This document shows, piece by piece, positions 3,714 through 41,378 of a DNA stretch of 64,000 nt. Each line of letters starts with the position of its first letter. The stretch's first letter is position 1. Origin of the DNA: a virus (Duplodnaviria > Heunggongvirae > Uroviricota > Caudoviricetes); IMG/VR virus record IMGVR_UViG_3300048938_000061, one strand, 5' to 3'. The position numbers and the translations under genes are program-made. The notes under the pieces were generated by a model that did not search any database, had not been told where the DNA came from, and worked only from the letters and a program-made list of their open reading frames with translations.

Positions 3714-6700
3714 TCAGAACTTAATTTTTAGGCCAACGTTAAACGAAGTCGCCGTCTTCCCGCCATCTGTTGGGATTGCGACTTCACCGCCACCGTAAAT
3801 CGACAGCTTTTCATTGAAGTTGTATTCTGTGCTTAGACCCAAAACCACATTGGTTTTCCCACGGCGAGCACCATCGGAAGTGAAATCTGTGCCGCTTAGC
3901 GAAAGATCACGTCGAGACTTCGTAATATCATGCGTCACAGCAGCCTTACCATAAATGCCAAGCGTTGCTCCATTCTTGCCAACCGTCTTTTTGCCGCCAA
4001 TCTTTACGCCAAACTCAGGGCGGAAAAGGTCCGTGCTGGACTTACCAGCTGAAACGCCACCAATACCTGCTTCAGAGAAGCCATCCGTACGCGAATAGAT
4101 GTAAGTGCCAGCAACATAAGGCGTCACAGTGAAATGGCCAATCTTTGCGACATCGTAACCGATGTCCACCTTAGCGGCGAAAATGTTGCCATGGTAATCT
4201 GTGCTGAGATGATCGCCGAGACCGAATATGGAACGGGTGGTTTCGAACTTCTGCCGACCGTAAGCCACCTGACCATTCAGTGTCCACATGTCGTGGGTGT
4301 AGCCGAGATAAGCGCCACCGAAATAGGTGTCTATATTATTATCGTCAGCCTGACCAGACACCTCGACCTTCATCGTGTTCCAGCCAGCATAGGCACCAGC
4401 AACAAGATCACTGGTGATGCGCTTGTCCATTCCAAATACGACACCGCCCAAAGAGTAATCTACGTTTGAAGCTCCTTTGCGACCATTCAGACCACCGACA
4501 CCACCGATACCGTCCATCCAGAGGCCAGTCGCCATATCGTGATCAAAACGCAACTGGTCAAGACGGTTACTCACACGTGACATAGGGGTTTCAATAGCCA
4601 CCATGCTTGCCTGAACAATCGAAGGGTGTACATCGCCGGAAATTTCCTCAAGCGCATTCTTCACAGCTCTCGCGGTATCGAGTTGCTGAATACCAGCTCC
4701 GAGCTTGATAAGATCATTTGACGCCAATACGACAGAAGTTTCCCCTGTCTTGTCAGCCTGGGTCTCGACGCTGTTTTCAATCATGGTCGCCGATTTACAA
4801 CCGTTTTCGCTTTCACAGACACTACTCTGCGTAATAGGGGTCGCGTCATAGCTGACAACGACATCATTACCAGTCAGATGATATGCCCCATTAACGAGAT
4901 AGGTCGGGCGGAAGTCAAAACTTTCAAAGTCACCTGAAATACCGCCTGCAGCTGTCATAACGCTGGTCTGACCTGTGCGGACGTAAGCATTTTCCACGCC
5001 GTCAATAGCCAATAGACCACCATTGATGGTTGCGGTGCCTGTTACATCAAGATTGGAACCTAGAACAACGGAAAGCGCGCCGCCGTCATTTACGTAGTTG
5101 CCGTTAACCCGAAGCGTGCCCGTATACGGCCAACCTGCATGCAGAATGCCTTTCGAGATCACATTACCGAGCTGTCCGTCCCCACCAACAATACCATTGA
5201 CACCGATACTGGTGTTTCCTGTTATAGAGCCGTTGACCACCAGCGCACCATCATTGACGGTAGTTCCGCCCGTGTAACTGTTATTCCCTGTCAAACGAAG
5301 AATGCCGCTGCCGTTCTTAACAAGGCCGCCTGCTCCAGAGATGTCGTTTTGCCAGACAGAGCCTCCGGAGAACGATACGTTGAAATCTCCCCAATCGAAC
5401 TTACCAGGACCGCGTATTGCCTTGGCAACGTCAACCATCCCGTAACCGAACACTGGATCAACTCCAGGCGCTCCGATGTCGCGAGCCGTACCAAGCAATA
5501 CCTGACCAATCTGGTCGCCCTTCATATATGGAAACACCTGCTTTACAAGAGCAGCTGAGGCCGTAATGACGGGGGCGGCGGCCGATGTTCCCGCAAAGAT
5601 ATGGGCATCATTTTGATCGGCATGTCCAGGCATATATAGACTAACTGGAGCGGCCAGACACCAACGAGCCACTGGACCACATTTGTTCGAATAGTATTCA
5701 AGATCACCATTATCGTTGGTCGCAACAACTGTCAGGTAACCACCTGTTTGCAATCGAGCATCCGTCAATTGCAAAGCGCCCCAATTGCCCGGATAATCCA
5801 GGGCGTCATTTGATGCGGACCAAACCATTAGCATACCATGCTGATCAATATACTTAGCAGAAATCTGACGTAATAGATCTAGTCCTGCAGAAGTCGAAAA
5901 CCCGTTGATAGGCAATTCCCAAGCTTTAACGCCAATGCTATGGTTTATAATGGTCACACCATCGACAAGCATATTTGCGTAAATCTGGTCGAATATTGAA
6001 TAAGAGATATAGCCATCAGTATCAAAAAGATGCGCTTGAGAAAGCTTTACACCCGGAGCTATACCACCAGCATAGCCAGTGTTGTTTTGCCACGTTGAAT
6101 CTGTATTACCAGTGATTATCATTGAAACGCTATCACCATGTCTTGTTTCAGTTTGTGTGCTGTTAGTGACATAGTTTCTTGTTGCGATGATTTTACCCTT
6201 CAGATGGATTCCTTCTCCACTAAAACCAGAATCCAAGGCACCAACGATAACATTTTGACCTGTAACGCCACGCGCATAGGCGTCATGAGCACCAATTGTT
6301 GTCATTGTTTTCGAAGTCTTGGTCTTATAAATGACAGGTATTTGCCATTCAGCAAGCCGAGGGACAGGAACGGTCGCAAGAAACTTGCTCGCTGACCGTT
6401 CAATACCTGTCACACTGTCAGCAATTGAACGACCAGCATCTCTCAATGCGTCAATGGCTTGCCTACCGACATTGTCGGTATATCTCAATGATGGAGCATA
6501 TTTGGCACCTTGTTCAGAGAAAGGAGGATTTTCACCAGGAAACGTTGAAGGAGGCGTCCAACCGCCAGAACCTCCGCTTCCTCCTGAGCCGCCATTCCCA
6601 AGTTCTGTATTATTATTCGAACCACCGTCATCGCCACCACCGCTACAAGCTGTCAAAAACGATGTTGCAAGAAGAGCAGAGATTAGTAGCGTTTTTCGTA

Positions 6701-6794
6701 AATTAGTGGTTTTCAAGATATGTCCCCAAATAAAATAAGCGCGAAGGCCTTCTATGAAGTGATTCATTGTCCATTCAATATTTATTGGCTGCAA
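3714..6794 (-). CDS. autotransporter (type Va) with S8 subtilisin-like serine protease passenger domain; probable lipoprotein
   Basis: Signal peptide with lipobox 'LTAC' and a Gly/Ser-rich linker. Catalytic triad contexts 'ALDSGF' (Asp), 'HGDSVS' (His) and 'GTSAAAP' (Ser). The C-terminal beta-barrel ends '...GLKIKF'. The true start is probably the internal Met 'MNHF...'. Confidence 0.85.
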   Translation of the reverse strand: MQPINIEWTMNHFIEGLRAYFIWGHILKTTNLRKTLLISALLATSFLTACSGGGDDGGSNNNTELGNGGSGGSGGSGGWTPPSTFPGENPPFSEQGAKYAPSLRYTDNVGRQAIDALRDAGRSIADSVTGIERSASKFLATVPVPRLAEWQIPVIYKTKTSKTMTTIGAHDAYARGVTGQNVIVGALDSGFSGEGIHLKGKIIATRNYVTNSTQTETRHGDSVSMIITGNTDSTWQNNTGYAGGIAPGVKLSQAHLFDTDGYISYSIFDQIYANMLVDGVTIINHSIGVKAWELPINGFSTSAGLDLLRQISAKYIDQHGMLMVWSASNDALDYPGNWGALQLTDARLQTGGYLTVVATNDNGDLEYYSNKCGPVARWCLAAPVSLYMPGHADQNDAHIFAGTSAAAPVITASAALVKQVFPYMKGDQIGQVLLGTARDIGAPGVDPVFGYGMVDVAKAIRGPGKFDWGDFNVSFSGGSVWQNDISGAGGLVKNGSGILRLTGNNSYTGGTTVNDGALVVNGSITGNTSIGVNGIVGGDGQLGNVISKGILHAGWPYTGTLRVNGNYVNDGGALSVVLGSNLDVTGTATINGGLLAIDGVENAYVRTGQTSVMTAAGGISGDFESFDFRPTYLVNGAYHLTGNDVVVSYDATPITQSSVCESENGCKSATMIENSVETQADKTGETSVVLASNDLIKLGAGIQQLDTARAVKNALEEISGDVHPSIVQASMVAIETPMSRVSNRLDQLRFDHDMATGLWMDGIGGVGGLNGRKGASNVDYSLGGVVFGMDKRITSDLVAGAYAGWNTMKVEVSGQADDNNIDTYFGGAYLGYTHDMWTLNGQVAYGRQKFETTRSIFGLGDHLSTDYHGNIFAAKVDIGYDVAKIGHFTVTPYVAGTYIYSRTDGFSEAGIGGVSAGKSSTDLFRPEFGVKIGGKKTVGKNGATLGIYGKAAVTHDITKSRRDLSLSGTDFTSDGARRGKTNVVLGLSTEYNFNEKLSIYGGGEVAIPTDGGKTATSFNVGLKIKF

Positions 6795-6924: not shown

Positions 6925-7386
6925 ATGGCCGTAGAAATTGAACGAAAATTCCTAGTAAAAAACGACAGCTGGAAAGCACGCGTCGTCAGCAGCTATCACA
7001 TTATTCAGGGATATCTCGTTGGTGAGCCAAAACTTGCAGTCCGTCTTCGCATCATCGACGACAAGGAAGCCCTTCTTACGATCAAGGGCAAGGGTGAAGG
7101 CATCGCACGACCTGAATACGAGTACCCGATCCCGCTCGTAGACGCCAAAGGAATGCTCTCAATGTGCGGCACACGCATCCTTGAGAAGACACGTCATCTG
7201 ATCAATGCAAACGACGGCCTCAAGTGGGAAGTTGATGTGTTTGCTGGTCGGCACGCTGGTCTCGTACTTGCTGAGATCGAATTGCCAAGCCTCGACACCA
7301 ATGTCGAGTTGCCTGAATGGACAGGCGAAGACGTAAGCGAAGACCCCCGTTATCTCAACGCTGTGCTAGCCATCCCTGCCGAGTAG
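6925..7386 (+). CDS. CYTH-domain protein (CyaB/ThTPase-like triphosphate tunnel metalloenzyme)
   Basis: N-terminal 'EIERKFLV' (the ExExK hallmark of CYTH). 153 aa. Confidence 0.8.
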   Translation: MAVEIERKFLVKNDSWKARVVSSYHIIQGYLVGEPKLAVRLRIIDDKEALLTIKGKGEGIARPEYEYPIPLVDAKGMLSMCGTRILEKTRHLINANDGLKWEVDVFAGRHAGLVLAEIELPSLDTNVELPEWTGEDVSEDPRYLNAVLAIPAE

Positions 7387-9083: not shown

Positions 9084-9332
9084 CTAGCTGGCGAGTGAAA
9101 GAGCAGCCAGAGTTTTATCCAATGGTTTCCAGTGAGGACAAGTCCATTTGGATTTACGCTCACGACCGCTTGGAAGAATTCCGAAATCACACGAAGATGG
9201 CTGGTCAACGTCGATCACACAGCGCCACGGCTTTTCTCCCTCTTCGTGATCAACAAAACACGAATAACGAACACCTCGTTTGTAATCAGATTTGTTATCA
9301 GCGTCTAAACTGCTCTCAAAATTATCTTCCAT
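9084..9332 (-). CDS. small Cys-containing hypothetical protein (82 aa)
   Basis: ORF with six Cys. Only intermediate confidence that it is coding. Confidence 0.35.
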   Translation of the reverse strand: MEDNFESSLDADNKSDYKRGVRYSCFVDHEEGEKPWRCVIDVDQPSSCDFGILPSGRERKSKWTCPHWKPLDKTLAALSLAS

Positions 9333-9686
9333 ATAAATAAATCCTTTTTGAACTAGTTACGAAAATTTAAGGTGGCAGTCAATATTTCGTTTTTTAATCG
9401 GAGTAGAAAATACAATTTAGACGTAGTAAATTTCGAAACAATATGATGCTTTAAAAGCTTAGTAGGGTCGGCGGGCGTATTAGCAATCTCAGATTAAAAA
9501 GCGAGGAGATTCATAAACAAAACCTTCCTTTCTTCAAAATTTTAATTTAAAAATGCGTGCGGCTTTTTATACAATCATGCCATCTACGATTTTGTATAAA
9601 TTCCATCTGCCGTCAATAATAGTTTCCAGTTTCAATTAACTTTTTGTAGTCCAAATGCTATCGCTTTCTAAATAAACATTATACGA

Positions 9687-10469
9687 CTAATGCCAGCCTG
9701 GAACACGCAGGTGCCGTCCTGAACCTTCTTCTTTGCTCCACCGTATGACGTCGCGTATATGTGACAATATATCATCGGGGACTTCCTGACCTTGTCGAGC
9801 ATTTCCATATTTGGTATATAGAAAATCGCGTTGTTGTTCCAGTTCTTCTTCCGATTTAACTCTAGCATAGTCACCGCGTCTAATGCCGAGTTGAAAATCG
9901 GATTTACATATCTTGCTTTTCTCTGCTTGAATTTTATTGAGGGCTTGCGTAAACCTCGGTTCTGCTATTCCAGTCCCACAGGTCCATTCATAATCCATAT
10001 ATTCACGTGAACTGTATGAACCGACTTCGATGCCATTTATTTCCAAATCATATCCAAACTCAGTCGGAACGATGTCCGGACATATACCAGAAATTTCTTC
10101 CATAAATGTTTTTGCGTCGAGCATGATTTCGAAATCATTGCCATCACAAGCTTTGGTGTCGAAAAGTTCAACCTTCATGAAATAAGGTTGATGCGTTGCG
10201 TCAAAGACAGGCTCTTTTCGAAAACATGGTGTCAGAGATACGAATTTCCCTTCGCCGAGCGTCCCATTCATCAATGCATCTACAAAAGACTGCTCTGAAG
10301 ACCCGACGAGCAATCCGAGATTTCTTAACTCATAAGTTCGGCTGAGATCATCCAGTGTTGAACTAACAGCTTCAATGCTCGCATGCCATGGCAGATCAAC
10401 GCGCTTATAACCAAGATTTTCATACCAATTGAGCGCTTTGACAAGGAACTCCCAGTTAACGGCGACCAT
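9687..10469 (-). CDS. class II aminoacyl-tRNA-synthetase-like catalytic core (SerRS-like paralogue without tRNA-binding arm)
   Basis: 'TPCFRKEPVFDATHQPYFMKVELF' parallels the SerRS motif 2 of this same window ('[28 protein letters not shown]'). 'GTGIAEPRFTQALNKIQ' parallels motif 3 ('GSGVAVGRLLIAIMENYQ'). Only 260 aa. Overlaps the upstream gene by 14 nt. Confidence 0.55.
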   Translation of the reverse strand: MVAVNWEFLVKALNWYENLGYKRVDLPWHASIEAVSSTLDDLSRTYELRNLGLLVGSSEQSFVDALMNGTLGEGKFVSLTPCFRKEPVFDATHQPYFMKVELFDTKACDGNDFEIMLDAKTFMEEISGICPDIVPTEFGYDLEINGIEVGSYSSREYMDYEWTCGTGIAEPRFTQALNKIQAEKSKICKSDFQLGIRRGDYARVKSEEELEQQRDFLYTKYGNARQGQEVPDDILSHIRDVIRWSKEEGSGRHLRVPGWH

Positions 10470-11274
10470 TAGCGAATGCCCTTGCTGTTACTGCAGCCAT
10501 ATCAAGAAGACTCTGAAGTGAAATCGATGGATGATGCTTGTTCAGGTAAGCTTCTATGGCACCCTGAAGGTCGGATAACTCTACAAGCGCCATTATGTCC
10601 ACGCCCTGCTTGACAGCATCCATGAACTCATTGACCTCTTCCGCAATCTTTGAAGGTTCTCCAAGGATGCCCTTCTCGATATCCGTGATGTGATAACCAG
10701 GTCTCGCCTGCTTTGGCAAAAGGTCAGCGATGTAATCCCAGAGCATATTGGGTGCAATCTTGCGTTCAAACGGACATACAGACGCCGCATTCACCTCCCG
10801 GATAACGTTTGCCAAATCTTTGGTGACTGGACCGCGTTCAAGATAAGTGACCGCCTTCGTGGCGCGAATACGATGAAACCCAGTTTCTGCAAACTCGTAG
10901 CTGGTGCCAGCGCTCATGTGGTAAGTGCTACCCTGTCGAAGAAAACCACGTGCAACCGGAACAGGGTCTTTGCTTTCACCTGGCTTACAGGACACCTGAA
11001 TAATTTCATGGTCTCCATCTGGAGCGTTTTCGATAAACCATTCTTCATGAGTTATCTTGCCAAGCAAGATATGCGAATGAAATCGATATCGATGATCGTG
11101 AAGCTCCTCTTCAGGAGTGTCCGCGAGCAAATCAGGATGCCAGAAATGAATTCGAGTATCATCCGTGAGCTTTAGCTGAATAAATCCGAGGCCAAACCAA
11201 TGCGGTGTCGTGCCGAATGAACGCAGGTGATCGACGTCCAGAAATTGGTCTAAACGGCCATCAAAAATACTCAT
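10456..11274 (-). CDS. two-domain protein: His-rich N-terminal domain (cupin-like?) fused to MazG-like NTP pyrophosphohydrolase domain
   Basis: C-terminal 'AEEVNEFMDAV...LVELSDLQGAIEAYL' fits the MazG/HisE all-alpha EExxE...D pattern. The N-terminal region has 'HFWHPD...HDHRYRFHSH'. Confidence 0.5.
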   Translation of the reverse strand: MSIFDGRLDQFLDVDHLRSFGTTPHWFGLGFIQLKLTDDTRIHFWHPDLLADTPEEELHDHRYRFHSHILLGKITHEEWFIENAPDGDHEIIQVSCKPGESKDPVPVARGFLRQGSTYHMSAGTSYEFAETGFHRIRATKAVTYLERGPVTKDLANVIREVNAASVCPFERKIAPNMLWDYIADLLPKQARPGYHITDIEKGILGEPSKIAEEVNEFMDAVKQGVDIMALVELSDLQGAIEAYLNKHHPSISLQSLLDMAAVTARAFANGRR

Positions 11275-12483: not shown

Positions 12484-13293
12484 TTAAAGTTCGATGACTT
12501 TACCGAACTCAAATTTTTCGTTTTCAGCGCCATAGCCCCGAGGGTTGCAAATCACCCTTGTGTTGCCAACATGGTAATCAAATGGCTGATGAACATGTCC
12601 ATGAACCCAAAGGTTAGGTTGATGTTCTTCAATTAAATCTGACAAATCAGAAACGAAAGCTCCATTCGTCGCATCGCCTTCAAATTTCGGATGAATTGAA
12701 GCTCTGTGTGGAGCATGATGGCTTACTACAACCGTTTTGCCATCAAAAGGTACCGCCAGAGTGACGTCGATGAAACTCCTCGTCTCTTGGTGAAGAGTTA
12801 CAAAGTCAGAAGGAAGTGCAAGCCTTGGAATGATGCCATCGCCTTTAGGAGCCTTTAAATAAATATTGCTGTAGTCCGACAGCCCATTTTTAGCGGCCCA
12901 CATGGCTTTTTGGATCGCTACATTACGCTCCGCTCCTGCTTCAGGGGCATCAATTGCAAAGTCAGTCCACAACGTGCCACCAAGAAAGCGTACGCCTTCA
13001 ATGATTTCAACACCGTTATCAAGGAAAGTCACATCTAGAGCGTTTGCGATAAGCCGCGCATTTTTGCGACCGCTTTCGATTGATGTATCATAGAATTCAT
13101 GATTTCCTGGCACCCAGATGACTGGCATTTTTGGCCTGACGACTTTTCCCACCCAGTTAATCGCAAGATGCATTGAATCGGTGACATCGCCAGCCAGAAC
13201 ACAAACATCAGCCTGCGGGTATCGATCAGGCTTTATCAACCGGATCGCGTCCTTCTGTGGGATATGTAGGTCAGATAAAATCCAGATACGCAT
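12484..13293 (-). CDS. metallophosphoesterase, calcineurin-like (paralogue of 659..1495)
   Basis: 'LSDLHI', 'LAGDVTD', 'PGNHEFYD', 'VSHHAPH', 'VHGHVHQPFDY'. Clear end-to-end similarity to 659..1495. Confidence 0.85.
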   Translation of the reverse strand: MRIWILSDLHIPQKDAIRLIKPDRYPQADVCVLAGDVTDSMHLAINWVGKVVRPKMPVIWVPGNHEFYDTSIESGRKNARLIANALDVTFLDNGVEIIEGVRFLGGTLWTDFAIDAPEAGAERNVAIQKAMWAAKNGLSDYSNIYLKAPKGDGIIPRLALPSDFVTLHQETRSFIDVTLAVPFDGKTVVVSHHAPHRASIHPKFEGDATNGAFVSDLSDLIEEHQPNLWVHGHVHQPFDYHVGNTRVICNPRGYGAENEKFEFGKVIEL

Positions 13294-13390
13294 ATGTCTT
13301 GATTACAGGATCAGAATTACTCGGTCAACGATTTAAATATTGACAATAATTATTTATTTAAATAAATGGTCCTTAACAAAGGACATAATT

Positions 13391-15019
13391 ATGAGTTTCC
13401 CCGTTCCAAATGCTATTTTAAATGAACTTAAGCATGACGATTTCTCAAAAACACAAAGTCTTTATTCTAATACGGCGAGAGATCCCGACAGAGAGGTTAA
13501 AATTGACCTTTCAAAGCTATCTGATGACGCTGTTTATGAGCTAGCTGCAGCATTCGAGCAGGCGGACATCATGAAAAATGTACGGATGCTGAATTCAATT
13601 CTTGATTCACGCTCTGGGAAAAAAGACCAGACGGTCAGAGGACTGGAAAGCTTACCAGACCTCCTTAAGAGTTACCTAGAAGTTGAACAAATCAATAAAT
13701 GGATTTTCCGTCGTGAAAAAGATGGGCAGCTTTATCCATATCTCGTTAAAGCCATTCAGATGTGCTCCGATGACAGTTTTCGTCAGACAGACAAAGAAGA
13801 TCAGTTTGTCATCATGCGCCTCGTCTCTTACAGCATTTGCGACGATGGAAAGATGGGAACAAAGTCCGAAACGATCTCGTTTCATCGGCATCACGTATCC
13901 AATCGCAGGATTTCCAAAATCCTGTCCGATTTTGATCTTTTCAAGGAGACAAAAGAACTGATCGCTGAGTACGAAGCTCAAGTGGAGCGTTATCGTGAAA
14001 TCATTATGCCTGGATTTTCGCAGCAATTTGTTGCCACCGGACAGACCGTAAAGATTGGCTATAGCGGCAAGGACACTTTTTTAAACAAAACACGCGTCAT
14101 TCACGACCTGTCTTCAAAAGATTTTGGTGCTTATAACGACACCATGGACGCTGAGACGAAGACCAATCACAATGAAAGCTTCCCGTGTCCATTGCATCCT
14201 ATGGTCAAGGTTTTCGATCTTGAATCTCATGATTTCCATTGGATCAATGGCAATATGGTGGAGCCATATGTCTATAAAAACCTACTCAATCATCTGGTTT
14301 TGCCAGAAACCCATCACGACCTTCTGGAAATGCTTACTGATGACCTGACAGACTTCTCGAATGATTTCGTTGAAGGCAAGGCAGCTGGAAACCTGATTAT
14401 CTGTAAGGGGCCTCCAGGCGTCGGCAAAACGCTGACAGGTGAACTGTATTCAGAGCATAAAAAAGTGCCTCTAATCGTATTACGCGCGGGCAAACTCGGC
14501 ACTACGGTTGCTGAAGTCACAAAAGGAATGAAGCAATACCTGGAATGGGCCACGAGGTGGAATTGCCCTATCCTCGTTAATGAATGCGATATCTACATTG
14601 CCAAGCGCAGTGATAATATCAATCTGAACGCAATCGTCGCCGAAATGCTGCAGTTGGTTGAGTACTATCCTGGCCTGCTCTTTATGACGACAAATCGTCC
14701 TGACGATATCGATGATGCGTTCGTCAGTCGTGCGTTGGCAATTATCAATTACGCAGCACCTGAAGGAAATCTCGTGGACGAAAGCTGGCGTCAGATTGCT
14801 TCTCTTCATGATTTGAAAATGGACGAAACTATGATCATGTCTCTCAAACAGCAATTCCCAAGCATCGTTCAGAGAGACATGAAGATGCTTCTGAAACTCG
14901 CAATGAAAAGATCGAAGCGCAGCCGAGAACCGATTACTCCAGACTTGCTACGCAAGATGGCAATGTTCCGAGACATCAAGATGTCGGCAATTGAATTAGG
15001 CACTCCAGATAACCAATAA
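13391..15019 (+). CDS. AAA+ ATPase (classical AAA clade) with about 340-aa unknown N-terminal domain
   Basis: Walker A 'GPPGVGKT'. Walker B-like 'ILVNECD' (Asn in place of the usual Asp). Sensor-1/Arg-finger region 'TTNRPDDIDDAFVSRA'. The start is probably 'MSFPV' (RBS 'aaagga'); the ORF track extends to 13340. Confidence 0.8.
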   Translation: MSFPVPNAILNELKHDDFSKTQSLYSNTARDPDREVKIDLSKLSDDAVYELAAAFEQADIMKNVRMLNSILDSRSGKKDQTVRGLESLPDLLKSYLEVEQINKWIFRREKDGQLYPYLVKAIQMCSDDSFRQTDKEDQFVIMRLVSYSICDDGKMGTKSETISFHRHHVSNRRISKILSDFDLFKETKELIAEYEAQVERYREIIMPGFSQQFVATGQTVKIGYSGKDTFLNKTRVIHDLSSKDFGAYNDTMDAETKTNHNESFPCPLHPMVKVFDLESHDFHWINGNMVEPYVYKNLLNHLVLPETHHDLLEMLTDDLTDFSNDFVEGKAAGNLIICKGPPGVGKTLTGELYSEHKKVPLIVLRAGKLGTTVAEVTKGMKQYLEWATRWNCPILVNECDIYIAKRSDNINLNAIVAEMLQLVEYYPGLLFMTTNRPDDIDDAFVSRALAIINYAAPEGNLVDESWRQIASLHDLKMDETMIMSLKQQFPSIVQRDMKMLLKLAMKRSKRSREPITPDLLRKMAMFRDIKMSAIELGTPDNQ

Positions 15020-22729: not shown

Positions 22730-24283
22730 CTATGCAACCATCGGTGAGAGGCTGGTTTCAAAGTGCTCATAAACGGCTTCAGGGTTATTGCTGTCCCAAG
22801 GAACAAAAGTGCCACGTTCAACGCCGGATCTCTCGGCAACGAGATCAATTTTCAGATGTGCGACCTTCCTGATGCCTTGCTGATTGATTGCGAACACAGT
22901 CCCTTCTTTAGGGAGGCAAACCTGTTCTACACCATTACTCATCGCAATATCGGCATGGGCTTCCATGTGGTGTTCCTCCCCGTGAACAGGAATAGAAAAA
23001 CGAGGGCGAACAAGGTCATACATGGTAGCAATCTCGTTTCCGACCGCATGGCCAGTTACGTGGAGAGGTGAGCCCCGATATTCCTTTTCCAAGATGCGGA
23101 CCCGCTTTGAACGAAGCTTGTCGAAGATCGAATAAAGGTCTTGTTCGTTGCCTGGAATAACGCGAGCCGAATGAACCACTGTATCGGACTGATGGACTTC
23201 CGGCAGTCTCCAATTTTCACCAGCGGCGTATTTTGCAAGAGATGCATTCTGTTCACCTTGCGCACCCGTACAAATCAACACCATCTCACGACGATCAAGT
23301 CCTCTAAGATGAGAAGGCTCTTTCAAAAATGGCCGAACGCCGTCCATCAATCCGAGTTCGCGTGCTATTTCTTCATTGCGCCGCAATGAACGGCCAGAGA
23401 GCGCCACTTGACGGCCAGTAGCGGCGGCAGCACGGCCAATTGATGCCACACGAGCAATATTGGTCGCAAAACAACTAACCAAACAAAGACCAGGAGCCTT
23501 TTTAAATACTTTCGCCATACCAGTTGCAACATCGCGTTCCGAAGTAACTGTACCTTGTCGATCCGCATTGGTGCTGTCACAAACTATAGCAAGAACGCCT
23601 TTTTCGCCCAGAGACTGGAGAGCCTTCATATTCGTTGGCCGACCCACTACTGGATGAGGATCGAATTTCCAGTCACCAGTATGAAAGACCTTTCCAACAG
23701 GCGTATCGAAAACAAGGCTTACACATTCAGGAACTGAGTGCGTCATGCGGATCGTATCGATATGCATGTTACCGACGCGTAGCCTGTTTCCAGGCTGGAA
23801 CTGACGCAGTTTAACATGTCCCAATGTTCCGGCCTCAGCAAAGCGGTTATTGAGAACCTTGGAAGCAAACGGAGTTGCGTAGATCGGACATTTTATTGTA
23901 GGCCAAAGCCGATGGATAGCGCCAATATGGTCTTCATGAGCATGTGTCACGACAAGACCTGAAAGCCTTGGCAAAACACCTTTCAGTGAATTCAAATCGG
24001 GGAAAATGGCGTCGACGCCATCAATATCGCGTGGAGCAAACGCAGAGCCTGCGTCAACCAAAACCCACTCGCCATCATAGCCGTAAAGGGTCCAGTTCAT
24101 TCCAATCTGACCGATGCCGCCGACTGTGCAAACGAGAACAGAATCTCGACTAGGAATTGGTAAAATTGAGGGGGAATTATTTGAATTTAATTTTAATAAT
24201 TCAGAATTTAAATGGGATTTACCCGAAACGTTTTCTTTTTCTTTCATGCTCTTCGTTTTCCGTGAATTTAGGACCAATGTCAA
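22730..24283 (-). CDS. rnj: ribonuclease J (metallo-beta-lactamase / beta-CASP family)
   Basis: 'LVCTVGGIGQIGMNWTLY...VLVDAG' N-terminal motif and 'VTHAHEDHIGA' (HxHxDH). The N-terminal 30-40 aa extension is probably not translated. Confidence 0.85.
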   Translation of the reverse strand: MTLVLNSRKTKSMKEKENVSGKSHLNSELLKLNSNNSPSILPIPSRDSVLVCTVGGIGQIGMNWTLYGYDGEWVLVDAGSAFAPRDIDGVDAIFPDLNSLKGVLPRLSGLVVTHAHEDHIGAIHRLWPTIKCPIYATPFASKVLNNRFAEAGTLGHVKLRQFQPGNRLRVGNMHIDTIRMTHSVPECVSLVFDTPVGKVFHTGDWKFDPHPVVGRPTNMKALQSLGEKGVLAIVCDSTNADRQGTVTSERDVATGMAKVFKKAPGLCLVSCFATNIARVASIGRAAAATGRQVALSGRSLRRNEEIARELGLMDGVRPFLKEPSHLRGLDRREMVLICTGAQGEQNASLAKYAAGENWRLPEVHQSDTVVHSARVIPGNEQDLYSIFDKLRSKRVRILEKEYRGSPLHVTGHAVGNEIATMYDLVRPRFSIPVHGEEHHMEAHADIAMSNGVEQVCLPKEGTVFAINQQGIRKVAHLKIDLVAERSGVERGTFVPWDSNNPEAVYEHFETSLSPMVA

Positions 24284-32600: not shown

Positions 32601-33791
32601 TTACCAGCCCGTGATCATCTGATTTTTTTGCTGTGGAATTGACCACTTGAATTCCAGAGTTCCGGCAGGCTTCTCGCCGACTTCAAAATCATCGATGACA
32701 CCATCAGATTGCTTGTCTTGACCAACTTTGTTGTAAGTCTTTTCAGGAACACGGATGCCCCAATGAGTCACGGTCTCGGTATTGCCTGTTTCAAAGCTCT
32801 TTATTGGAAAAGACACCGCAACGCCGTTTACGTCCAACGCCTCGACAATCAAATAATATACTTTGGTCCGATTATTATCCGGCGTGCGCCAGACACCTGA
32901 ACGAACTCCTGCACGATCAACAATACGAAGCATCAAAGGTGTTTGGATGCGATTTACCTGTTCATCCAGGTTTCGTTTGGCTGCAGAAAATGCAACCTCG
33001 TCACCCTTCTTAGCGGCGATTTCAATCCGATAAAAATAGGGTTCCAACGAACGTTTAGCGCCATCATCCATAGGCTTTGCTGACACTTCGTTTTTCAACG
33101 TTTCAAGTTCAGACTGCAAAATTGCAATTGCAGCTTTAGCCTTAAGTGAAGATGCCATTTCATTCAGAGTGACAATATTCTTGCGCGCATCATCGACACG
33201 TTTGGCATCAATAAACTGTTGAGTAGCATCACGAAGATTATCAGAATGGGCCTTGGCAACATCGTCATTATATTCTTCGGCAGCTGAAATGGCCGCCGTA
33301 TGAGCGCTCTTCAATGCTTGGGGAAGACGAGTTTCGACATCAAGTTTCAATTCAGCTGCAATGCGATCTTGTTCTGCTTTCGCCGCGATTTCAGCCCGTT
33401 CACGAGGCTTTACCACGAACTCGCTATGAATAAATAAGGCCGATCCATAAATAAATGCTACCGATGCGACCGCAGCTGCAGATCGTGCTGCAATTTTCCC
33501 GCGATTAATCCACATCCGCGCAAGTAGACGAGAAAATCCAGGTGCAAGCGGCTCATGAACATAGCGATTTTTGTCCATATCTTCGACAGCACGATTAATA
33601 ATTTCGTCAGAAACAAGCATTCCTTGCGATTCATACCACTGTCGAAGTTTAGCCTTGAGTGCCGAACGACGATCATCGGAAAGAATTTCCGTTTCCTGAA
33701 TGGCCATTTCATGACGAATTGTATCGACAGTATCTGCCGCCATTAAAACGTCTTCCATCGAAGGCGTATTTTTCACTGCAATAGCTGACAT
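32601..33791 (-). CDS. coiled-coil protein with single TM segment (396 aa)
   Basis: 'AAAVASVAFIYGSALFI' hydrophobic segment followed by an Ala/Lys/Glu-rich helical region. Confidence 0.65.
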   Translation of the reverse strand: MSAIAVKNTPSMEDVLMAADTVDTIRHEMAIQETEILSDDRRSALKAKLRQWYESQGMLVSDEIINRAVEDMDKNRYVHEPLAPGFSRLLARMWINRGKIAARSAAAVASVAFIYGSALFIHSEFVVKPRERAEIAAKAEQDRIAAELKLDVETRLPQALKSAHTAAISAAEEYNDDVAKAHSDNLRDATQQFIDAKRVDDARKNIVTLNEMASSLKAKAAIAILQSELETLKNEVSAKPMDDGAKRSLEPYFYRIEIAAKKGDEVAFSAAKRNLDEQVNRIQTPLMLRIVDRAGVRSGVWRTPDNNRTKVYYLIVEALDVNGVAVSFPIKSFETGNTETVTHWGIRVPEKTYNKVGQDKQSDGVIDDFEVGEKPAGTLEFKWSIPQQKNQMITGW

Positions 33792-35362: not shown

Positions 35363-38074
35363 TTGCAGATCATATATTGCAACATTATTGAACAGGCGGT
35401 TTCAGGCATGGCGAAAAATAACATGACACTCGGTTTCCGTAAAACCATTTTGGTGCATGGCAGAATGGCATTACGAACTGAACGACTACGGTTGGCTAGA
35501 GAGGGAGCCAGCGGTATCCAAGTCATGGCAATCGAACATTTTGCAGAGCGGCTTGCGGGCGGTTTTCTCAAAATGGTTGATAATCGTACGCTCAAACAGG
35601 TCATAGGGAAAATTCTGCCTGAAACAGATATTGGAGAACTGGAGCCAATTAAAGATTTGCCTGGGATGACAGCCGCAGCTGCCGACACCCTCATGAAACT
35701 ATGGCTTTCTCAGCCTGATTTTGAAAACAATTCTGACCACAAGCGCATTCAGTCTATCATCGCACTTGAAACCGCAGTGGTTAATGCCCTTCCCGCTCAT
35801 CTGCGGCGACCCAATGACATTATTGAGATCGCCATTACACGCGCCAAACACTCTCCATCCATCTTTGGCAACGTCTCCATAAGCGGAATGACTGAACTAC
35901 ATCCGGTATGGCGTCCTCTCATTGATGAGGTTTCCAAGTATATCTCTATCGAATGGAATGCTGGACCACGAGAAGTGTCTTCTTGGATTGAAAATGCAAT
36001 GCGAGTCAATCGTTGCGAACCAACTAATCCGGAAATTCAGTCATACATTTGCGGCACTGCACTTCATGAAGTTATCGAAGCCGTTCGTTGGTCCCGCAAA
36101 TTGATGTCAGAAGGTGTATTGCCACGAGATATTGCCATCGCAAGTGTCTCAACGACGGCTTATGATGAACATATGCTAGCAGTTTGCTCCGACAGCAAGT
36201 TAGGTATTCATTTCGCTCACGGCATTTCCTGTGTGCATAGGATTGAAGGACAGGCGGCCAGCGCGCTCGCAGATGTGTTATTGCGTGGATTATCTCAAAA
36301 GCGAGTTCAACGCCTATTTGACCTTCTGCAAGGTATTGGTTCAGAGGTTGTCAAAGGTCTGTCTGGTGATTGGAGCCGCAATTTCCGGCCGGATGCAGCC
36401 CTCACTGAACTATCGCGTTGGGAGAAAACGCTAAACAGCAAACCACAGCTCGCAGAACTTAAAAACATTATGCTCCCGATCCTTTCTCTTATTTCCAAGG
36501 GGATCGATGTTGCTCCAGAAGCTGGCGAGAAGCTATTTCACGGCCAAACCAAGAAAATTTGGGAAGCGGCTCTCCTGGAAGGGCCTGCAGCCGCCTTAGA
36601 CCGTACAATCCCCGTACAAAGAATTGATGACGGTGAAGATCCTCATTCCTCTGCATGTTTTATGTCGGCAGAGAAATTGGCGGCCTCTCCAAGGCCTTAC
36701 GTTCGCCTCATTGGACTGACTTCAAGAGATTGGCCTCGGCAATCTGTAGAAGATGCTCTCATTCCAGACTACATCATTCCTTCGGCCGCACTTGATCCGC
36801 TGCCTCGTTCCAATATTGACAGACGTGATTACAATACGATTAAGGCCACGACTGAGAAACTCCTTATTCTTTCATGGCCTCGGCGTGATGCTGAAAGCCG
36901 TCAATTAGGCGTCAGCCGTCTGGTTACACAGGCAGAACGTGATCGCGCAATATCCATACAACTCACGGACCGCCCTGAACATGCGTTCTCTGAGGCAGAT
37001 CGCATGTTTGCGCGCGACAAGGAATACGCAACAACCACACAAGCATTGTCGGCGGCACAATGTTGGTCAAATTGGCGATCCAAGGATTTGACCGCTCATG
37101 ATGGCGTCATTTCGCCTAATCACCCGCGTGTCCTGGAAGTGTTCAATCAATACCATTCGGCAACATCCATTCGCTTACTACTGCGCGATCCAATTGGCTT
37201 TGTCTGGCGTTATGCACTTGGTTTCAGTGCACCAGAATACGAGGATGCTCCACTTTTTGCCGATCCTCGCGAATTCGGAAATATCGTCCATGACATTTTG
37301 AAGCAAACCGTTGATCAGTTAATCCGTAAGGGCGGTTTCGTAAACGCATCAGCAGACGACATTTCTCGCACGATTGATGAGCAGTCAATTAATGTTGGTA
37401 TGCGGGTCGAAATGTCTAAACCGATCCCACCAAAACTGATCTGGTTTGGAATGATGGAAAGAGCCACTCAGTTCGCTAAGAAAGCACTGCTTAGTGAAAT
37501 TGAACCCTATGCTAATCAGGTTACATATGCAGAGGTTCCATTCGGCGGAAAAATAGAGCTTCAGGATGTTGAGTTCCCTTGGGATACTGAACAAGAAGTA
37601 ACCGTCCCAGGAACTGGCATCAAATTGCAAGGCATTATTGACCGTCTGGATTACTCAACGTCTTCGCCAAGAGCCCGCGTAATCGATTACAAGACTGGAA
37701 AGACGCCGAAAAACATTGACGACCTCATTATTGGTGGTGGCAACGAAATCCAACGCGCGATCTATGGCTTCGTTGTTAAGTCACTGATGGGCGGCAATGC
37801 TCAAGTTGAAACGGGACTTCTTTATCCTGAAACTGGTGTCTTTGCCATTCTGGAAGAGCCTGAAGAGGTTTTGACACAGGTTGCAAACGGTATCTTGATT
37901 GCCAAGGAATCTCTCAAACGAGGAAATGCGATTCCAGGAATTGGAACCAGAGAAACATTTAACGACATGCGTTTTGCACTGCCAGCAAACGCCGCAGCCA
38001 CATATTTGCTGCGAAAAAACCAGACGTTTCTTGATCAGATCGGGGAAGCGGCAGATATTTGGGAGTACAAATAA
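35363..38074 (+). CDS. addB: AddB-type helicase-nuclease subunit (inactive helicase, RecB-family nuclease)
   Basis: C-terminal 'RVIDYKTGKTP' (the DYKTG PD-(D/E)xK nuclease motif). No Walker A. Lies immediately upstream of addA. An alternative start is at 35408 ('MAKNN'). Confidence 0.75.
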   Translation: MQIIYCNIIEQAVSGMAKNNMTLGFRKTILVHGRMALRTERLRLAREGASGIQVMAIEHFAERLAGGFLKMVDNRTLKQVIGKILPETDIGELEPIKDLPGMTAAAADTLMKLWLSQPDFENNSDHKRIQSIIALETAVVNALPAHLRRPNDIIEIAITRAKHSPSIFGNVSISGMTELHPVWRPLIDEVSKYISIEWNAGPREVSSWIENAMRVNRCEPTNPEIQSYICGTALHEVIEAVRWSRKLMSEGVLPRDIAIASVSTTAYDEHMLAVCSDSKLGIHFAHGISCVHRIEGQAASALADVLLRGLSQKRVQRLFDLLQGIGSEVVKGLSGDWSRNFRPDAALTELSRWEKTLNSKPQLAELKNIMLPILSLISKGIDVAPEAGEKLFHGQTKKIWEAALLEGPAAALDRTIPVQRIDDGEDPHSSACFMSAEKLAASPRPYVRLIGLTSRDWPRQSVEDALIPDYIIPSAALDPLPRSNIDRRDYNTIKATTEKLLILSWPRRDAESRQLGVSRLVTQAERDRAISIQLTDRPEHAFSEADRMFARDKEYATTTQALSAAQCWSNWRSKDLTAHDGVISPNHPRVLEVFNQYHSATSIRLLLRDPIGFVWRYALGFSAPEYEDAPLFADPREFGNIVHDILKQTVDQLIRKGGFVNASADDISRTIDEQSINVGMRVEMSKPIPPKLIWFGMMERATQFAKKALLSEIEPYANQVTYAEVPFGGKIELQDVEFPWDTEQEVTVPGTGIKLQGIIDRLDYSTSSPRARVIDYKTGKTPKNIDDLIIGGGNEIQRAIYGFVVKSLMGGNAQVETGLLYPETGVFAILEEPEEVLTQVANGILIAKESLKRGNAIPGIGTRETFNDMRFALPANAAATYLLRKNQTFLDQIGEAADIWEYK

Positions 38075-38075
38075 T

Positions 38076-41000
38076 ATGCTAAATGACTCAACAGCTCGTC
38101 GTGTTGCCCTTCTCGAAATCAACCGCACTCTTATGGTTGAAGCTGGTGCTGGTTCGGGAAAAACATCACTCATGGCAGGGCGCATTATTTCAATGCTCGC
38201 CAATGGAATTCATCCTCGCGATATTGCAGCCGTATCATTTACGGAAATGGCGGCAGCTGAACTCATGGCCCGCGTCAGTGATACAATAGACGATGTATTA
38301 AAAGGAACGCCACCAGCCGACCTCCGTGCCTCTTACGAAGGCGGCAACGTCTCATCAGAAGGGCAAGCGAAGCTTCAGGAGGCCCAACATCACCTTGGTG
38401 AAATGACCTGCACCACTATTCACGGTTTCTGTAAGCGTCTCCTGAAGCCCTATCCGGTCGAGGCCGATATTGATCCTGGTGCCGCAATCCTAGATGCGAC
38501 GCAGGCATCTCTCCTTTTTGAGGACGTATTCAACGAATGGATTCGTGAGCGACTGAACAGCGAAGATTATCATAAAGATATCATTACCGAGATGGTCGCC
38601 GCCCATTCAGATACAAAGGAAGCTATCGAAACCATCCGTCGTCTCGCTGAACAGTTACGTGGTTCACCAGACCTATTCCTACATAAACAGGAATTCGATA
38701 TTTCTCCTGTGACTAAATTAATTAGCCAAATCGAAAGCTACGAAAAATGGATCGCGGGTCTTGGTTTTGAAGCCGAGGGCAATGAAGATATCCGCGCCGA
38801 TTTTGCTAAATTGCTAAATGATTTGAAGGCAACAAAAACCGTGAAAACGCATCAAGCGGTCATGGACATCATTCGTATGAAGCTTTCCAGTTCGGTTCTC
38901 AAAGCCGATGGCGGATTTCGCGTCTACAAGATGAAGGGAAAATGGCAGGTTGCTGCTCCTTCAAAAAAGGTCGGTGAAGATTGCAATACAGAGGCGACTG
39001 AACGCTATAATGAAATAGCAGAAGGTTACACCGCCATTAAAACAATGGCCGCGTCGGCAGCGCTTACGATCCTTGAAAGAGAAATTCGCCCAATGCTTAA
39101 TCGCTATCGCGAAAGAAAGCGGCAGGGCGCTGCTCTTGATTTTGAAGATTTGCTCGTCGCAACCCGCAAGCTTCTGCAAAATTATCCTGAGATCGCAAGT
39201 GCTCTCGGACAGCGGTATAAACATGTCCTCGTTGACGAATTCCAGGACACTGACCCTGTCCAGACAGAGATTTTCAAGCATCTTTGTTTCGACCGTGACA
39301 GCGACGGCGACTGGCTTCCACGTGATGGCGCGATCTTCCTTGTCGGTGATCCAAAACAGGGGATTTATCGTTTCCGTGGCGCTGACGTGAAGACATATCT
39401 GGATATGCGTAATCTTCTCGAAAAACATGACCCGACATCTATCTTGAAAATCTCTACAAATTTTCGGTCGAGCAAAGGCATTCTGGATTATGTCAATAAC
39501 GTATTCGATGTTCCTTTAAGCACACCTACACAGCCAGGATTTACCGCACTCGACCCTTTCCGTCAGGACACGACAAAACATCCTTCGGTTTCGACAATAA
39601 AGATTGGTGAATGGCCTAACATTGCCGAGACACGTGATGAGGAAGCGCGTCAAATTGCAGAAATGGCGCGTAAATTAATTAACACATTCCCTGTTTTTGA
39701 TAAGAGAATTGGGGCCACACGTCCGTGCAAACCATCCGACATTGCATTGCTCGCTCCAACAGGTTCTGATCTGTGGCGCTATGAGCACGCACTGGAAGAA
39801 GAAGGAATTTCAGTTGCTACTCAGGCGGGCAAGGGAATGTTTCAGCGGCAGGAAGTTCAAGACATGATCGCGATCACCCGCGTTCTTGCTGATCCTCGCG
39901 ACCATCTCGCTTTAGGTGCACTATTGCGTGGCCCTCTAGTCGGCATGTCGGAAAACGATCTTCTTGATGCTGCCTACAATCTTCCGAAACGCGAAGATGA
40001 AAGTCTTGCTCATTTACACATTGGTGTCGACACGGACCATATCAAAAATCCCGTTCTGAAGTCTGTTTTGAAACAACTCAACACGTTGCGTAACAACGGC
40101 AAATACACGACGCCTTATGACGTTCTTTCGAGCGCTGTAGACATGTTGAACATCAGAGCGACCGTTAAAGCTCGCCATGTGAAGTCACCTCATCGTGCGT
40201 TGGCCAATATAGACAGATACCTTGAAATGAGCCGTCCTTACACAACACGAGGATTAAGAGCCTTCTCTGATGAGGTCCGTTCCCTATGGGAAGAAGCTGA
40301 GCGTATTGCGGAAGCACATCCTGACGGAGAAGATCAGTCGGTCTCCATCATTACGATGCACTCATCTAAGGGGCTGGAATGGCCTGTGGTTTTCGTTATT
40401 AACACAATGACAGAAATTATGCGTTCGAGACCGCTGGTTGTTGATGTTAGTTCACGTCAAATATCGATGCCTTTCTTCGGAAGTCAGCCAACAGGATATA
40501 GCGAATTAAAACAGATTTCGGATGACGAATCTCACAATGAACGCGTGCGCTTACTTTACGTAGCAACGACGCGTGCCCGCGATCTTCTCGTTGTTCCTGT
40601 TCATGAAAAAGTAACGGAAAGGCAGTGGGCAACTGTAACTGACTTGAAGTTACAGGATATCCAGACAATGGATCTGGAAACTTTTTCCAGCAAGATGCGC
40701 ATACAGCGCGATGTCACCCTCAATAATCAGGATGAGAAGACTTTTTCTGAACAAACTAACTCAATTCTGTCTGCCAAGAAGCTCGTCGTAAATAAAACCC
40801 CTTCTCGCCACGAAAGCCACGCATCGAGCCTTCGGATTACTATCGATGATCTCATCGAAGCTGAACCAGTCAGCGACCCATCCGAATTCGTTCAAGGCAG
40901 CGCAGAACGCGGTATTGTGATGCATAAGCTGATGGAAGAAATCCTGACAGGAGAGTTGTCCGAGAACGAGGAAGATATTGAAAAGCGTGCGCGCGAGTTA

Positions 41001-41378
41001 ATCCAACAGATGATTGCTTCAAAAGAAGATGAGATCAAAGACATGGATGAACACATCATGACAAAGGAGATCATACAAACCCTCTCCTTGCCCCAAATCG
41101 TCATGATGCGTGATCGGCTTGTGCCAGAAGTTGCAACCTATTCCTCATTCGAAAACGACAAGTTTGAAGGCGTTACATTCGGCATTATGGATGCGGCCGA
41201 AATATCGGATAATGGAACCGTTGAAACCGTTATTGATTGGAAATCGGACAGAAGTCCCGCAGACGCAACAATTGAATTGTACCGCAAGCAAATTTCGGAC
41301 TATATGGCCATGAACGGGGTCAACCGGGGATTGATCGTTTTTATGGCAAGCGGAAAAGTTATAGAAGTAGCCGCATGA
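38076..41378 (+). CDS. addA: AddA-type ATP-dependent helicase/nuclease (UvrD/Rep superfamily 1)
   Basis: 'AGAGSGKTSLM' (Walker A), 'VLVDEFQDTDPVQ', 'MHSSKGLEWPVVFV', C-terminal 'IDWKSD' nuclease region. The start is placed at the ATG two nt after the addB stop; the ORF track over-extends to 37899. Confidence 0.85.
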   Translation: MLNDSTARRVALLEINRTLMVEAGAGSGKTSLMAGRIISMLANGIHPRDIAAVSFTEMAAAELMARVSDTIDDVLKGTPPADLRASYEGGNVSSEGQAKLQEAQHHLGEMTCTTIHGFCKRLLKPYPVEADIDPGAAILDATQASLLFEDVFNEWIRERLNSEDYHKDIITEMVAAHSDTKEAIETIRRLAEQLRGSPDLFLHKQEFDISPVTKLISQIESYEKWIAGLGFEAEGNEDIRADFAKLLNDLKATKTVKTHQAVMDIIRMKLSSSVLKADGGFRVYKMKGKWQVAAPSKKVGEDCNTEATERYNEIAEGYTAIKTMAASAALTILEREIRPMLNRYRERKRQGAALDFEDLLVATRKLLQNYPEIASALGQRYKHVLVDEFQDTDPVQTEIFKHLCFDRDSDGDWLPRDGAIFLVGDPKQGIYRFRGADVKTYLDMRNLLEKHDPTSILKISTNFRSSKGILDYVNNVFDVPLSTPTQPGFTALDPFRQDTTKHPSVSTIKIGEWPNIAETRDEEARQIAEMARKLINTFPVFDKRIGATRPCKPSDIALLAPTGSDLWRYEHALEEEGISVATQAGKGMFQRQEVQDMIAITRVLADPRDHLALGALLRGPLVGMSENDLLDAAYNLPKREDESLAHLHIGVDTDHIKNPVLKSVLKQLNTLRNNGKYTTPYDVLSSAVDMLNIRATVKARHVKSPHRALANIDRYLEMSRPYTTRGLRAFSDEVRSLWEEAERIAEAHPDGEDQSVSIITMHSSKGLEWPVVFVINTMTEIMRSRPLVVDVSSRQISMPFFGSQPTGYSELKQISDDESHNERVRLLYVATTRARDLLVVPVHEKVTERQWATVTDLKLQDIQTMDLETFSSKMRIQRDVTLNNQDEKTFSEQTNSILSAKKLVVNKTPSRHESHASSLRITIDDLIEAEPVSDPSEFVQGSAERGIVMHKLMEEILTGELSENEEDIEKRARELIQQMIASKEDEIKDMDEHIMTKEIIQTLSLPQIVMMRDRLVPEVATYSSFENDKFEGVTFGIMDAAEISDNGTVETVIDWKSDRSPADATIELYRKQISDYMAMNGVNRGLIVFMASGKVIEVAA

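Follow-up and report, generated by a model that had tools for sequence, protein, structure and literature searches.

A SerRS-like catalytic core and a MazG/HisE-like partner form a near-obligate module widespread in large phages

Two overlapping genes in a 64,000-nucleotide stretch of a Caudoviricetes genome (IMG/VR record IMGVR_UViG_3300048938_000061; the whole stretch is referred to here as the window) encode a protein resembling the catalytic core of seryl-tRNA synthetase (SerRS; gene B) and a protein whose C-terminal domain resembles the MazG and HisE pyrophosphohydrolases (gene A). The SerRS-like and MazG-like parts make up a widespread, near-obligate phage module. Judged from its sequence, B is a minimal core of the SerRS type that could plausibly be catalytic, and it is not a SerRS. 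Paralogs of class II aminoacyl-tRNA synthetases (aaRSs) that work independently of tRNA were already known; what is new is the obligatory MazG/HisE-like partner and the restriction of this core-only SerRS-like family to phages. In the open-access literature (subscription journals lie outside that scope), we found neither functional work on the pair nor a description of it as a module, and the labels given to its members are automatic ones, namely, “histidyl tRNA synthetase,” “putative seryl-tRNA synthetase,” and “MazG-like.” The features on which the analysis turns are as follows.

10456-11274, minus strand: gene A, cupin::MazG/HisE-like fusion, ATG to TAA, 272 amino acids (aa)
10711-11217, minus strand: cupin domain of A, approximately aa 20-188
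10459-10710, minus strand: MazG/HisE-like all-alpha domain of A, aa 189-272, with the motif GYH...SK..EE..E...E..D...R
9687-10469, minus strand: gene B, SerRS-like, ATG to TAG, 260 aa
9927-10469, minus strand: conserved core of B, aa 1-181, a SerRS-like minimal class II aaRS catalytic domain
10456-10469, minus strand: 14-nucleotide (nt) overlap of A and B, from the A stop codon to the B ATG, ATGGTCGCCGTTAA
45684-46976, minus strand: canonical SerRS gene (serS), full length, TIGR00414, E = 3.5e-143

Hidden Markov models for the three domains were applied to 71 IMG/VR loci with a relative of B and to 8 further loci from phage records and related contigs. In 76 of these 79 loci, the MazG-like domain and B are adjacent and share a strand; in the other three the match is partial, in two cases because the contig ends there. 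Gene order is variable: the MazG-like domain mostly lies upstream of B, but in about 19 loci it is downstream. The two parts are also found fused in both orders. Single open reading frames (ORFs) of the type B::MazG occur in L049, L051, L057 to L059, and L077 and in the library representative P0230, and L071 to L073 have the same layout with the start of B in another reading frame, while the library representative P0316 is a fusion of the reverse order, MazG::B. In the window, A and B overlap by 14 nt, an overlap that is kept in the relatives L004 and L007 and that suggests translational coupling of the two genes.

The two parts have matching phyletic profiles as well. Among 50,697 phage records, B was detected in 276 and the MazG-like domain in 278, with virtually identical counts per taxon (B and MazG-like domain, respectively: Escherichia, 112 and 113; Acinetobacter, 61 and 59; Caulobacter, 13 and 13; Pectobacterium, 10 and 10; Cronobacter, 8 and 8; Microcystis, 8 and 8). 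No other neighbor family is conserved across the loci beyond close relatives. The variable gene order, the fusions in both orders, and the matching phyletic profiles are typical of two proteins that work as a unit. As a separate observation on the fused forms, a radical-SAM protein is encoded ∼1.3 kb downstream in L049 (7905-8822) and in eight similar fused-ORF loci.

An exhaustive profile search recovered 1,198 representatives of the B family (clusters at 50% identity) at an E value of ≤1e-30 and 1,477 at ≤1e-10, and nearly all of these clusters have lengths of 176 to 210 aa. The phages that carry the module are large (90 to 640 kb) and include many jumbo phages; among them are phi92-like and phAPEC8-like coliphages, CR3/CR8-like, Ma-LMM01, and CbK-like phages, and T4-like phages of Acinetobacter and Morganella. 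The part of Bas54 that was scanned (85 to 134 kb; 49 kb) contained no copy. A set of 185,579 species genomes yielded only 14 B loci, mostly on contigs of metagenome-assembled genomes (MAGs), and 11 of the 14 have a MazG-like gene adjacent. None of the 14 offers a bacterial operon context that would name a pathway; the neighbors at the Pararhizobium locus, for example, are Sir2, AIM24, and proteins without assignment. The pair is conserved in phages and not as a bacterial housekeeping duo, an alternative that had been raised in the first-pass annotation of this DNA. One MAG contig labeled Nanoarchaeota (L087) has a second weak match to the SerRS-like core (6350-6754, E = 4e-7) 1.2 kb upstream of its main copy, which may be a diverged paralog.

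Sequence and fold comparisons agree that the closest relatives of B are real SerRS enzymes, and the best SerRS matches are bacterial-type. The only Pfam match was tRNA-synt_2, below threshold (16.5 bits versus a cutoff of 25); NCBIfam and PADLOC returned no match, and a search of the PDB with the B sequence returned nothing. In PHROGs, residues 3 to 181 match phrog_4806 (E = 7e-38), a family labeled “histidyl tRNA synthetase.” When a profile of the B alignment was compared with the PDB, SerRS ranked first (E = 1.8e-6), followed by PylRS (3e-4) and then by AspRS/AsnRS. The BirA/LplA-like fold considered earlier as an alternative is not that of B. Alignment of B with the SerRS encoded in the window by hhalign gave a probability of 96.6% (E = 6e-10) and placed residues 15 to 126 of B on residues 190 to 317 of SerRS. 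The parallel drawn in the first-pass annotation between motifs 2 and 3 of B and those of the genuine SerRS is borne out by these comparisons, and all of the peptides quoted for it are present. The window element encodes both a full-length SerRS and a SerRS-like mini-core.

B has the class II fold, with an antiparallel beta-sheet core and motifs 1, 2, and 3, together with SerRS-type active-site positions. Aligned with the window SerRS, “LVGSSEQS” of B pairs with “LIPTAEVS,” “LTPCFRKE” with “LTPCFRSE” (motif 2), “YFMKVEL” with “HQFNKVEL,” and “GTGIAEPR” with “GSGVAVGR” (motif 3); the segment YDLEINGIEVGSYS likewise has an aligned counterpart. Relative to bacterial-type SerRS in general, “SAEQ” corresponds to “TAEV,” “TPCFRxE...FxKVEL” to motif 2, “YDLE..IEVGS” to “YDIE..EISSCS,” and “GTGxAEPR” to “GSGxAVGR,” including the Thr/Ser six residues ahead of the motif 3 Arg. 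Conservation was read from an alignment of 66 diverse sequences, in which S57, E59, Q60, P81, C82, R84, F97, K99, E101, D141, E148, G150, S151, Y152, T166, A169, P171, and R172 are invariant. The equivalents of SerRS catalytic residues (R84, E148, S151, R172, and an acidic residue at 86) are invariant or nearly so, and the serine-pocket positions S57, E59, E101, and T166 are conserved. In published SerRS structures, ATP, Mg2+, and the seryl group are bound at what we take to be the same positions.

B differs from bacterial-type SerRS in several respects. At 18 to 21% identity, it has ∼180 aa where the SerRS catalytic domain has ∼320. The N-terminal antiparallel coiled-coil arm, with which SerRS binds the variable arm of tRNA(Ser), is absent, as had been noted at first reading, given that B begins only 14 residues ahead of the part aligned to SerRS residue 190 and that family members have only 176 to 210 aa. 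Some 150 further residues of the SerRS body are missing besides the coiled coil. The motif 2 loop is ∼6 residues shorter than that of the window SerRS and has no conserved basic residue, and B has a MazG-like partner.

The C-terminal domain of A is probably a remote homolog of the MazG and HisE proteins, as its motif and profile matches suggest. More than 100 metagenomic proteins share the fusion over its full length (41 to 92% identity). In the AlphaFold2 (AF2) model of A (pLDDT 93), this domain is all-alpha, with helices at residues 207 to 223, 226 to 247, and 253 to 268. K209, E212, E213, E216, E232, and D235 are invariant in 65 fusion proteins. In 50 diverse copies of the MazG-like domain taken from related loci, stand-alone or fused, the Y, H, K, EE..E, E..D, and last Arg of the motif are invariant. 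The domain thus has the acidic metal-binding motif on two helices, EExxE(12-28)ExxD, and the pattern shared by the copies, K..EExxE(15)ExxD, is the signature of all-alpha NTP pyrophosphohydrolases. Pfam PRA-PH (HisE) was weakly matched by 38 of the 50 copies and MazG by 6, and no other family recurs, so that a helical family other than MazG, the alternative named earlier, does not emerge. All of these matches are below threshold (13.9 bits for the window copy versus a cutoff of 21.3; best member, E = 4.9e-4), and the assignment is one of remote homology, unproven because no profile match passes a curated threshold. In the PDB, the nearest entries were the PRA-PH structure 2a7w and the MazG-like protein SSO3215 (1vmg), both with an E value of 0.09, with PRA-PH entries ranging from 0.09 to 0.56. 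NCBIfam and PADLOC gave no match to A, and neither a single-sequence search of the PDB nor a profile of full-length A against it returned anything. In PHROGs, residues 192 to 272 of A match phrog_6408 (E = 1.7e-32), of unknown function. GenBank depositors had given the same two identities to phi92 gp197/gp196 and to orf119/orf118 of Acinetobacter phage Lazarus.

Like the other MazG types of phages (cyanophage MazG, MazZ of Z-genome phages, and the T4 gp56-type dCTPases) and like HisE, the domain is small and all-alpha and has EExxE...ExxD, and like the former it is phage encoded. It differs from them in forming its own 84-aa family, phrog_6408, below Pfam thresholds, with additional invariant GYH and C-terminal Arg motifs and found essentially only beside or fused to the SerRS-like core.

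The His-rich N-terminal part of A, which had been proposed to be a metal-binding cupin, has a cupin fold. Its matches are to cupins, and in the model, it forms an RmlC-like beta-barrel with clustered histidines, a three-His site consisting of H59, H61, and H134, plus H43; R62, Y63, C96, and Y126 are invariant. Residues 27 to 187 match phrog_4784 in PHROGs, again of unknown function. The cupin is an optional third part of the module and is found in four arrangements: as cupin::MazG in the window clade, L010, L011, and L050; as MazG::cupin in Phab24; downstream of B in L054, sharing an ORF with the MazG-like domain; and in L091 as a gene of its own that follows B.

We propose, tentatively and at somewhat less than an even chance, that the module is a heteromeric enzyme that couples the formation of seryl-AMP (Ser-AMP) to nucleotide-level chemistry and does not carry out ordinary tRNA charging. 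The suggestion of the first-pass annotation that the pair makes or removes an aminoacylated or modified nucleotide is compatible with all of the observations and is the reading that we favor. B and the MazG-like protein would form one complex; the fusions found in nature, the placement of the genes side by side in either order, and the overlap of their reading frames all suggest this. B would use ATP to activate serine (or a small amino acid closely resembling it), yielding the aminoacyl-adenylate, and would then move the aminoacyl group onto a nucleotide-level acceptor, at a hydroxyl or an amine, and not onto a full tRNA. An NTP would be cut between its alpha and beta phosphates by the MazG-like subunit, either to prepare the acceptor or to trim the product, and the pair as a whole would produce a nucleotide that carries an aminoacyl group or some other modification, or would destroy such a nucleotide in a controlled way. 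Where present, the cupin would add a metal-dependent oxidation or isomerization. The product or target is probably, if speculatively, tied to tRNA or translation during infection by large phages.

A nucleotide-level acceptor is favored because B has shed all tRNA-binding parts and its motif 2 loop is not basic, because its constant partner is a nucleotide enzyme, sometimes accompanied by a cupin of the small-molecule type, and because the core-only class II paralogs use non-tRNA acceptors: every one known to us (AsnA, HisZ, EpmA, and the amino acid:carrier-protein ligases) works on targets other than tRNA. Ordinary tRNA charging is disfavored because an RNA-binding domain is absent from the great majority (>90%) of B family members, the loop is short and nonbasic, and both partners are acidic (median pI values of 5.1 and 5.3). 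The AlaRS-like proteins AcmD and AcmF of ascamycin biosynthesis are an example of class II aaRS relatives that place an amino acid on a nucleoside-type acceptor; they belong to another aaRS lineage and to actinomycete gene clusters and are likened to the module by their chemistry. EpmA (PoxA/GenX), the LysRS-core paralog that aminoacylates EF-P, differs from B in belonging to subclass IIb and in using another amino acid, and no EF-P-like acceptor was identified for B. A more specific version of the proposal, which we regard as unlikely, is that the pair makes a seryl-nucleotide that mimics an aminoacyl-adenylate or an aminoacylated CCA end and jams the host SerRS, translation, or a tRNA-sensing defense. 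The nucleotide would then be oxidized further in cupin-bearing lineages, and the full-length SerRS of the window would be the phage's own insensitive copy.

Truncated aaRS paralogs have repeatedly shown unexpected chemistry, including EF-P lysylation, carrier-protein loading, and asparagine synthesis. Solving the reaction would assign roles to two phage genes that are common yet called “hypothetical” and that databases now mislabel “histidyl tRNA synthetase,” and it could expose a new phage strategy against nucleotides or tRNA. It would also provide research on aaRS evolution with a class II catalytic core that is nearly minimal by nature. If the pair does make such a seryl-nucleotide, B would, at ∼180 residues, be an unusually small natural class II enzyme that still performs adenylate chemistry.

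Several observations weigh against nucleotide-level chemistry by such a pair. Some concern the parts themselves. The MazG/HisE assignment consists of a motif and subthreshold profile matches, and the two fold searches made with the two-domain model of A returned only cupins, the cupin half dominating the result. Two MAG loci (L083 and L088) have a complete B with no detectable MazG-like gene nearby. The link between cupin and module is loose because 285 PB1-like Pseudomonas phages (∼66 kb) have the cupin family by itself, with neither the SerRS-like nor the MazG-like gene; in CbK-like phages, the cupin lies ∼170 kb away from the module. The others concern genomic context and point to a macromolecular partner, tRNA or nucleic acid. 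They favor the chief alternative, which we rate somewhat below our own proposal, in which the module acts on tRNA 3′ ends: the arm-less B would seryl-charge, cap, or protect the CCA of phage or host tRNAs, and its partner would clear nucleotides such as NTP-derived blocking groups or alarmones, the whole being part of a tRNA-maintenance toolkit of large phages. Together with the relationship of B to real SerRS enzymes, this is suggested by tRNA genes within 6 kb of the module in 24 of 94 loci, with the module inside or at the edge of same-strand tRNA arrays in L018, L019, L024, L027, L030, L040, L042, L044, L046, L052, and L066, an association that is only suggestive because the background rate was not computed and accessory genes of all kinds tend to gather in tRNA arrays. 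In phi92, the MazG-like gene and B are directly followed by the YqeY-like gp195 (L096, 4586-5020; Pfam YqeY, 30.3 bits, above the cutoff), of a tRNA-binding type, a partner seen only at this locus among the loci compared. In the CbK-type phages P0194 and P0217, a helix-hairpin-helix (HhH) domain resembling RNA_pol_A_CTD is fused to the N terminus of B and is above the Pfam cutoff, and A7_1 and Vibrio phage 2.275.O have a gene for a CCA-adding enzyme or nucleotidyltransferase a few kilobases from the module. However, more than nine-tenths of the family has no such appendage, the loop and the acidity of the proteins do not suit tRNA binding, and the window has no tRNA gene in its 64 kb and already encodes a full SerRS. 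An action on tRNA 3′ ends would also leave the obligatory NTP pyrophosphohydrolase-like partner, and in places the cupin, unexplained.

The remaining alternatives assign B a role other than aminoacyl transfer to a nucleotide or tRNA. It might be a regulatory subunit like HisZ, sensing an amino acid and ATP as signals and exerting allosteric control over the MazG-like pyrophosphohydrolase, which would make degradation of the (d)NTP or alarmone pool depend on how the infected cell stands in amino acids or energy. A regulator-enzyme pair would be consistent with a complex as tight as the fusions imply, HisE/PRA-PH is the only recurrent Pfam match of the partner, and the PHROG label “histidyl tRNA synthetase” reflects the same resemblance. 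We consider this improbable: HisZ has lost its catalytic residues, whereas B keeps the SerRS catalytic positions across its 66 diverse members, the profiles find SerRS and PylRS and not HisRS/HisZ, and the genes lie in phage genomes and not in his operons, with no HisG-like gene in any neighborhood examined. Decidedly improbable is a bifunctional dinucleoside-polyphosphate pair comparable to bifunctional Rel, in which B would make Ap4A or Ap4N from the adenylate and the MazG-like domain would cleave it. The synthesis of Ap4A by several class II aaRSs is established, the adenylate-forming site of B appears intact, the family of the partner cleaves the alpha-beta bonds of NTPs, and single-chain fusions of the two parts occur; but nothing speaks for this pair specifically, the conserved serine-pocket positions would be needed merely as a cofactor site, and the Ap4A hydrolases known to us belong to other folds. 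Least credible, and hardly to be entertained, is that B is an amino acid:carrier-protein ligase of the Bll0957/Atu2573 type with the helical partner or ORF C, an 82-aa ORF downstream of B, as its carrier. Both are of carrier-protein size, and B shares with these ligases a SerRS-derived core without tRNA-binding domains that is presumably tRNA independent. The ligases, however, derive from the methanogen-type, zinc-dependent SerRS and are encoded beside their carrier protein, whereas B matches bacterial-type SerRS best and is partnered by an NTP pyrophosphohydrolase-like protein. The helical partner was rejected as a carrier on account of its MazG metal motif and its lack of an invariant Ser (that of “ELSDL” is often Ala), and ORF C was rejected because it has no PP-binding match and is not conserved with the module. 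The earlier statement that no carrier protein is adjacent extends to A, ORF C, the other neighbors, and the conserved neighborhoods, none of which gave a PP-binding match, and no phosphopantetheinyl transferase (PPTase), nonribosomal peptide synthetase (NRPS), or polyketide synthase (PKS) gene is found among the neighbors.

Downstream of the conserved core of B, the window has the following features.

9687-9926, minus strand: C-terminal tail of B, aa 182-260, window specific and unconserved
9338-9911, no strand: AT-rich stretch of ∼575 nt without a counterpart in the closest relative (blastn against L004 and L007)
9084-9332, minus strand: ORF C, 82 aa, Cys/His-rich (C..C..C..CPH)

The first-pass description of B as a 260-aa protein overlapping A was right in the overlap, coordinates, and frames, but the length is inflated by the unconserved 79-aa tail. 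In a collection of 5.8 billion proteins, homologs of B are almost all 176 to 205 aa long and cover its first ∼72% (maximum query coverage, 73%), and none was found for residues 182 to 260, which are also absent from L004 and L007. The tail is modeled with low confidence (pLDDT 38 to 72). In L004, a 92%-identical relative, 125 nt stand in place of positions 9338-9911, for which L007 likewise lacks a counterpart; in these two relatives, B is 179 to 205 aa long and ORF C starts within ∼70 nt. The length of 260 aa therefore appears to be a local accident, B reading into the ∼575-nt stretch, and the tail is probably read-through into replaced intergenic DNA. The stretch is not repeated elsewhere in the window or in the compared loci and contains no terminator and no Rfam match near threshold; scans of the locus for Rfam families, promoters, and terminators gave nothing credible. 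ORF C has homologs only in the five closest relatives (L004 to L007 and L080) and no match in Pfam, PHROG, NCBIfam, or PADLOC, and it is a local neighbor outside the conserved module.

The window has a GC content of 0.446 and no near-identical DNA among sequenced phages. Its syntenic relatives are contigs of 78 to 235 kb and a 1.19-Mb contig of Mesorhizobium sp. SP-1A, an isolate genome; the element may be a huge phage or prophage, or else a megaplasmid or other large element. In the latter (L007/L080), the genes for the AAA ATPase, metallophosphoesterase, A, B, C, CYTH, and S8 autotransporter all recur at ∼74 to 89% DNA identity, with a local GC content of 0.51 versus 0.44 in the window. A more distant copy of the cupin-MazG gene and B lies on a 1.6-Mb contig of Pararhizobium sp. 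BT-229 (L082), beside Sir2 and AIM24 and at a host-like GC content of 0.61.

The element is very poorly charted, in that its large ORFs mostly have no Pfam or PHROG match apart from the SerRS and those for an RNase J-like beta-CASP protein (22730-24283, minus strand), a DUF6384 protein (32601-33791, minus strand), and a PD-(D/E)XK nuclease overlapping a helicase (35363-41378, plus strand; common part, 37899-38074). The module is flanked by genes for a CYTH triphosphate-tunnel protein (6925-7386, plus strand) and a calcineurin-like metallophosphoesterase (12484-13293, minus strand), and in Vibrio phage 2.275.O (L002), too, a CYTH gene is found ∼5 kb away from the SerRS-like and MazG-like pair. 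Genes of nucleotide metabolism possibly recur in this neighborhood. The AAA ATPase (13340-15019, plus strand) has weak PADLOC matches to IetA, and a 1,026-aa ORF (3714-6794, minus strand) is syntenic with a Peptidase_S8 + PATR + autotransporter protein in L004 to L007. The two are reminiscent of an IetAS-like ATPase/protease pair, though they lie ∼7 kb apart. Two tRNA genes near the module in other phages are of the suppressor type, one in L062 (11010-11084; called “tRNA-Pyl” by aragorn, anticodon CUA) and one in L002 (245-360; annotated in GenBank, anticodon TTA), which hints at stop-codon reassignment in those two phages.

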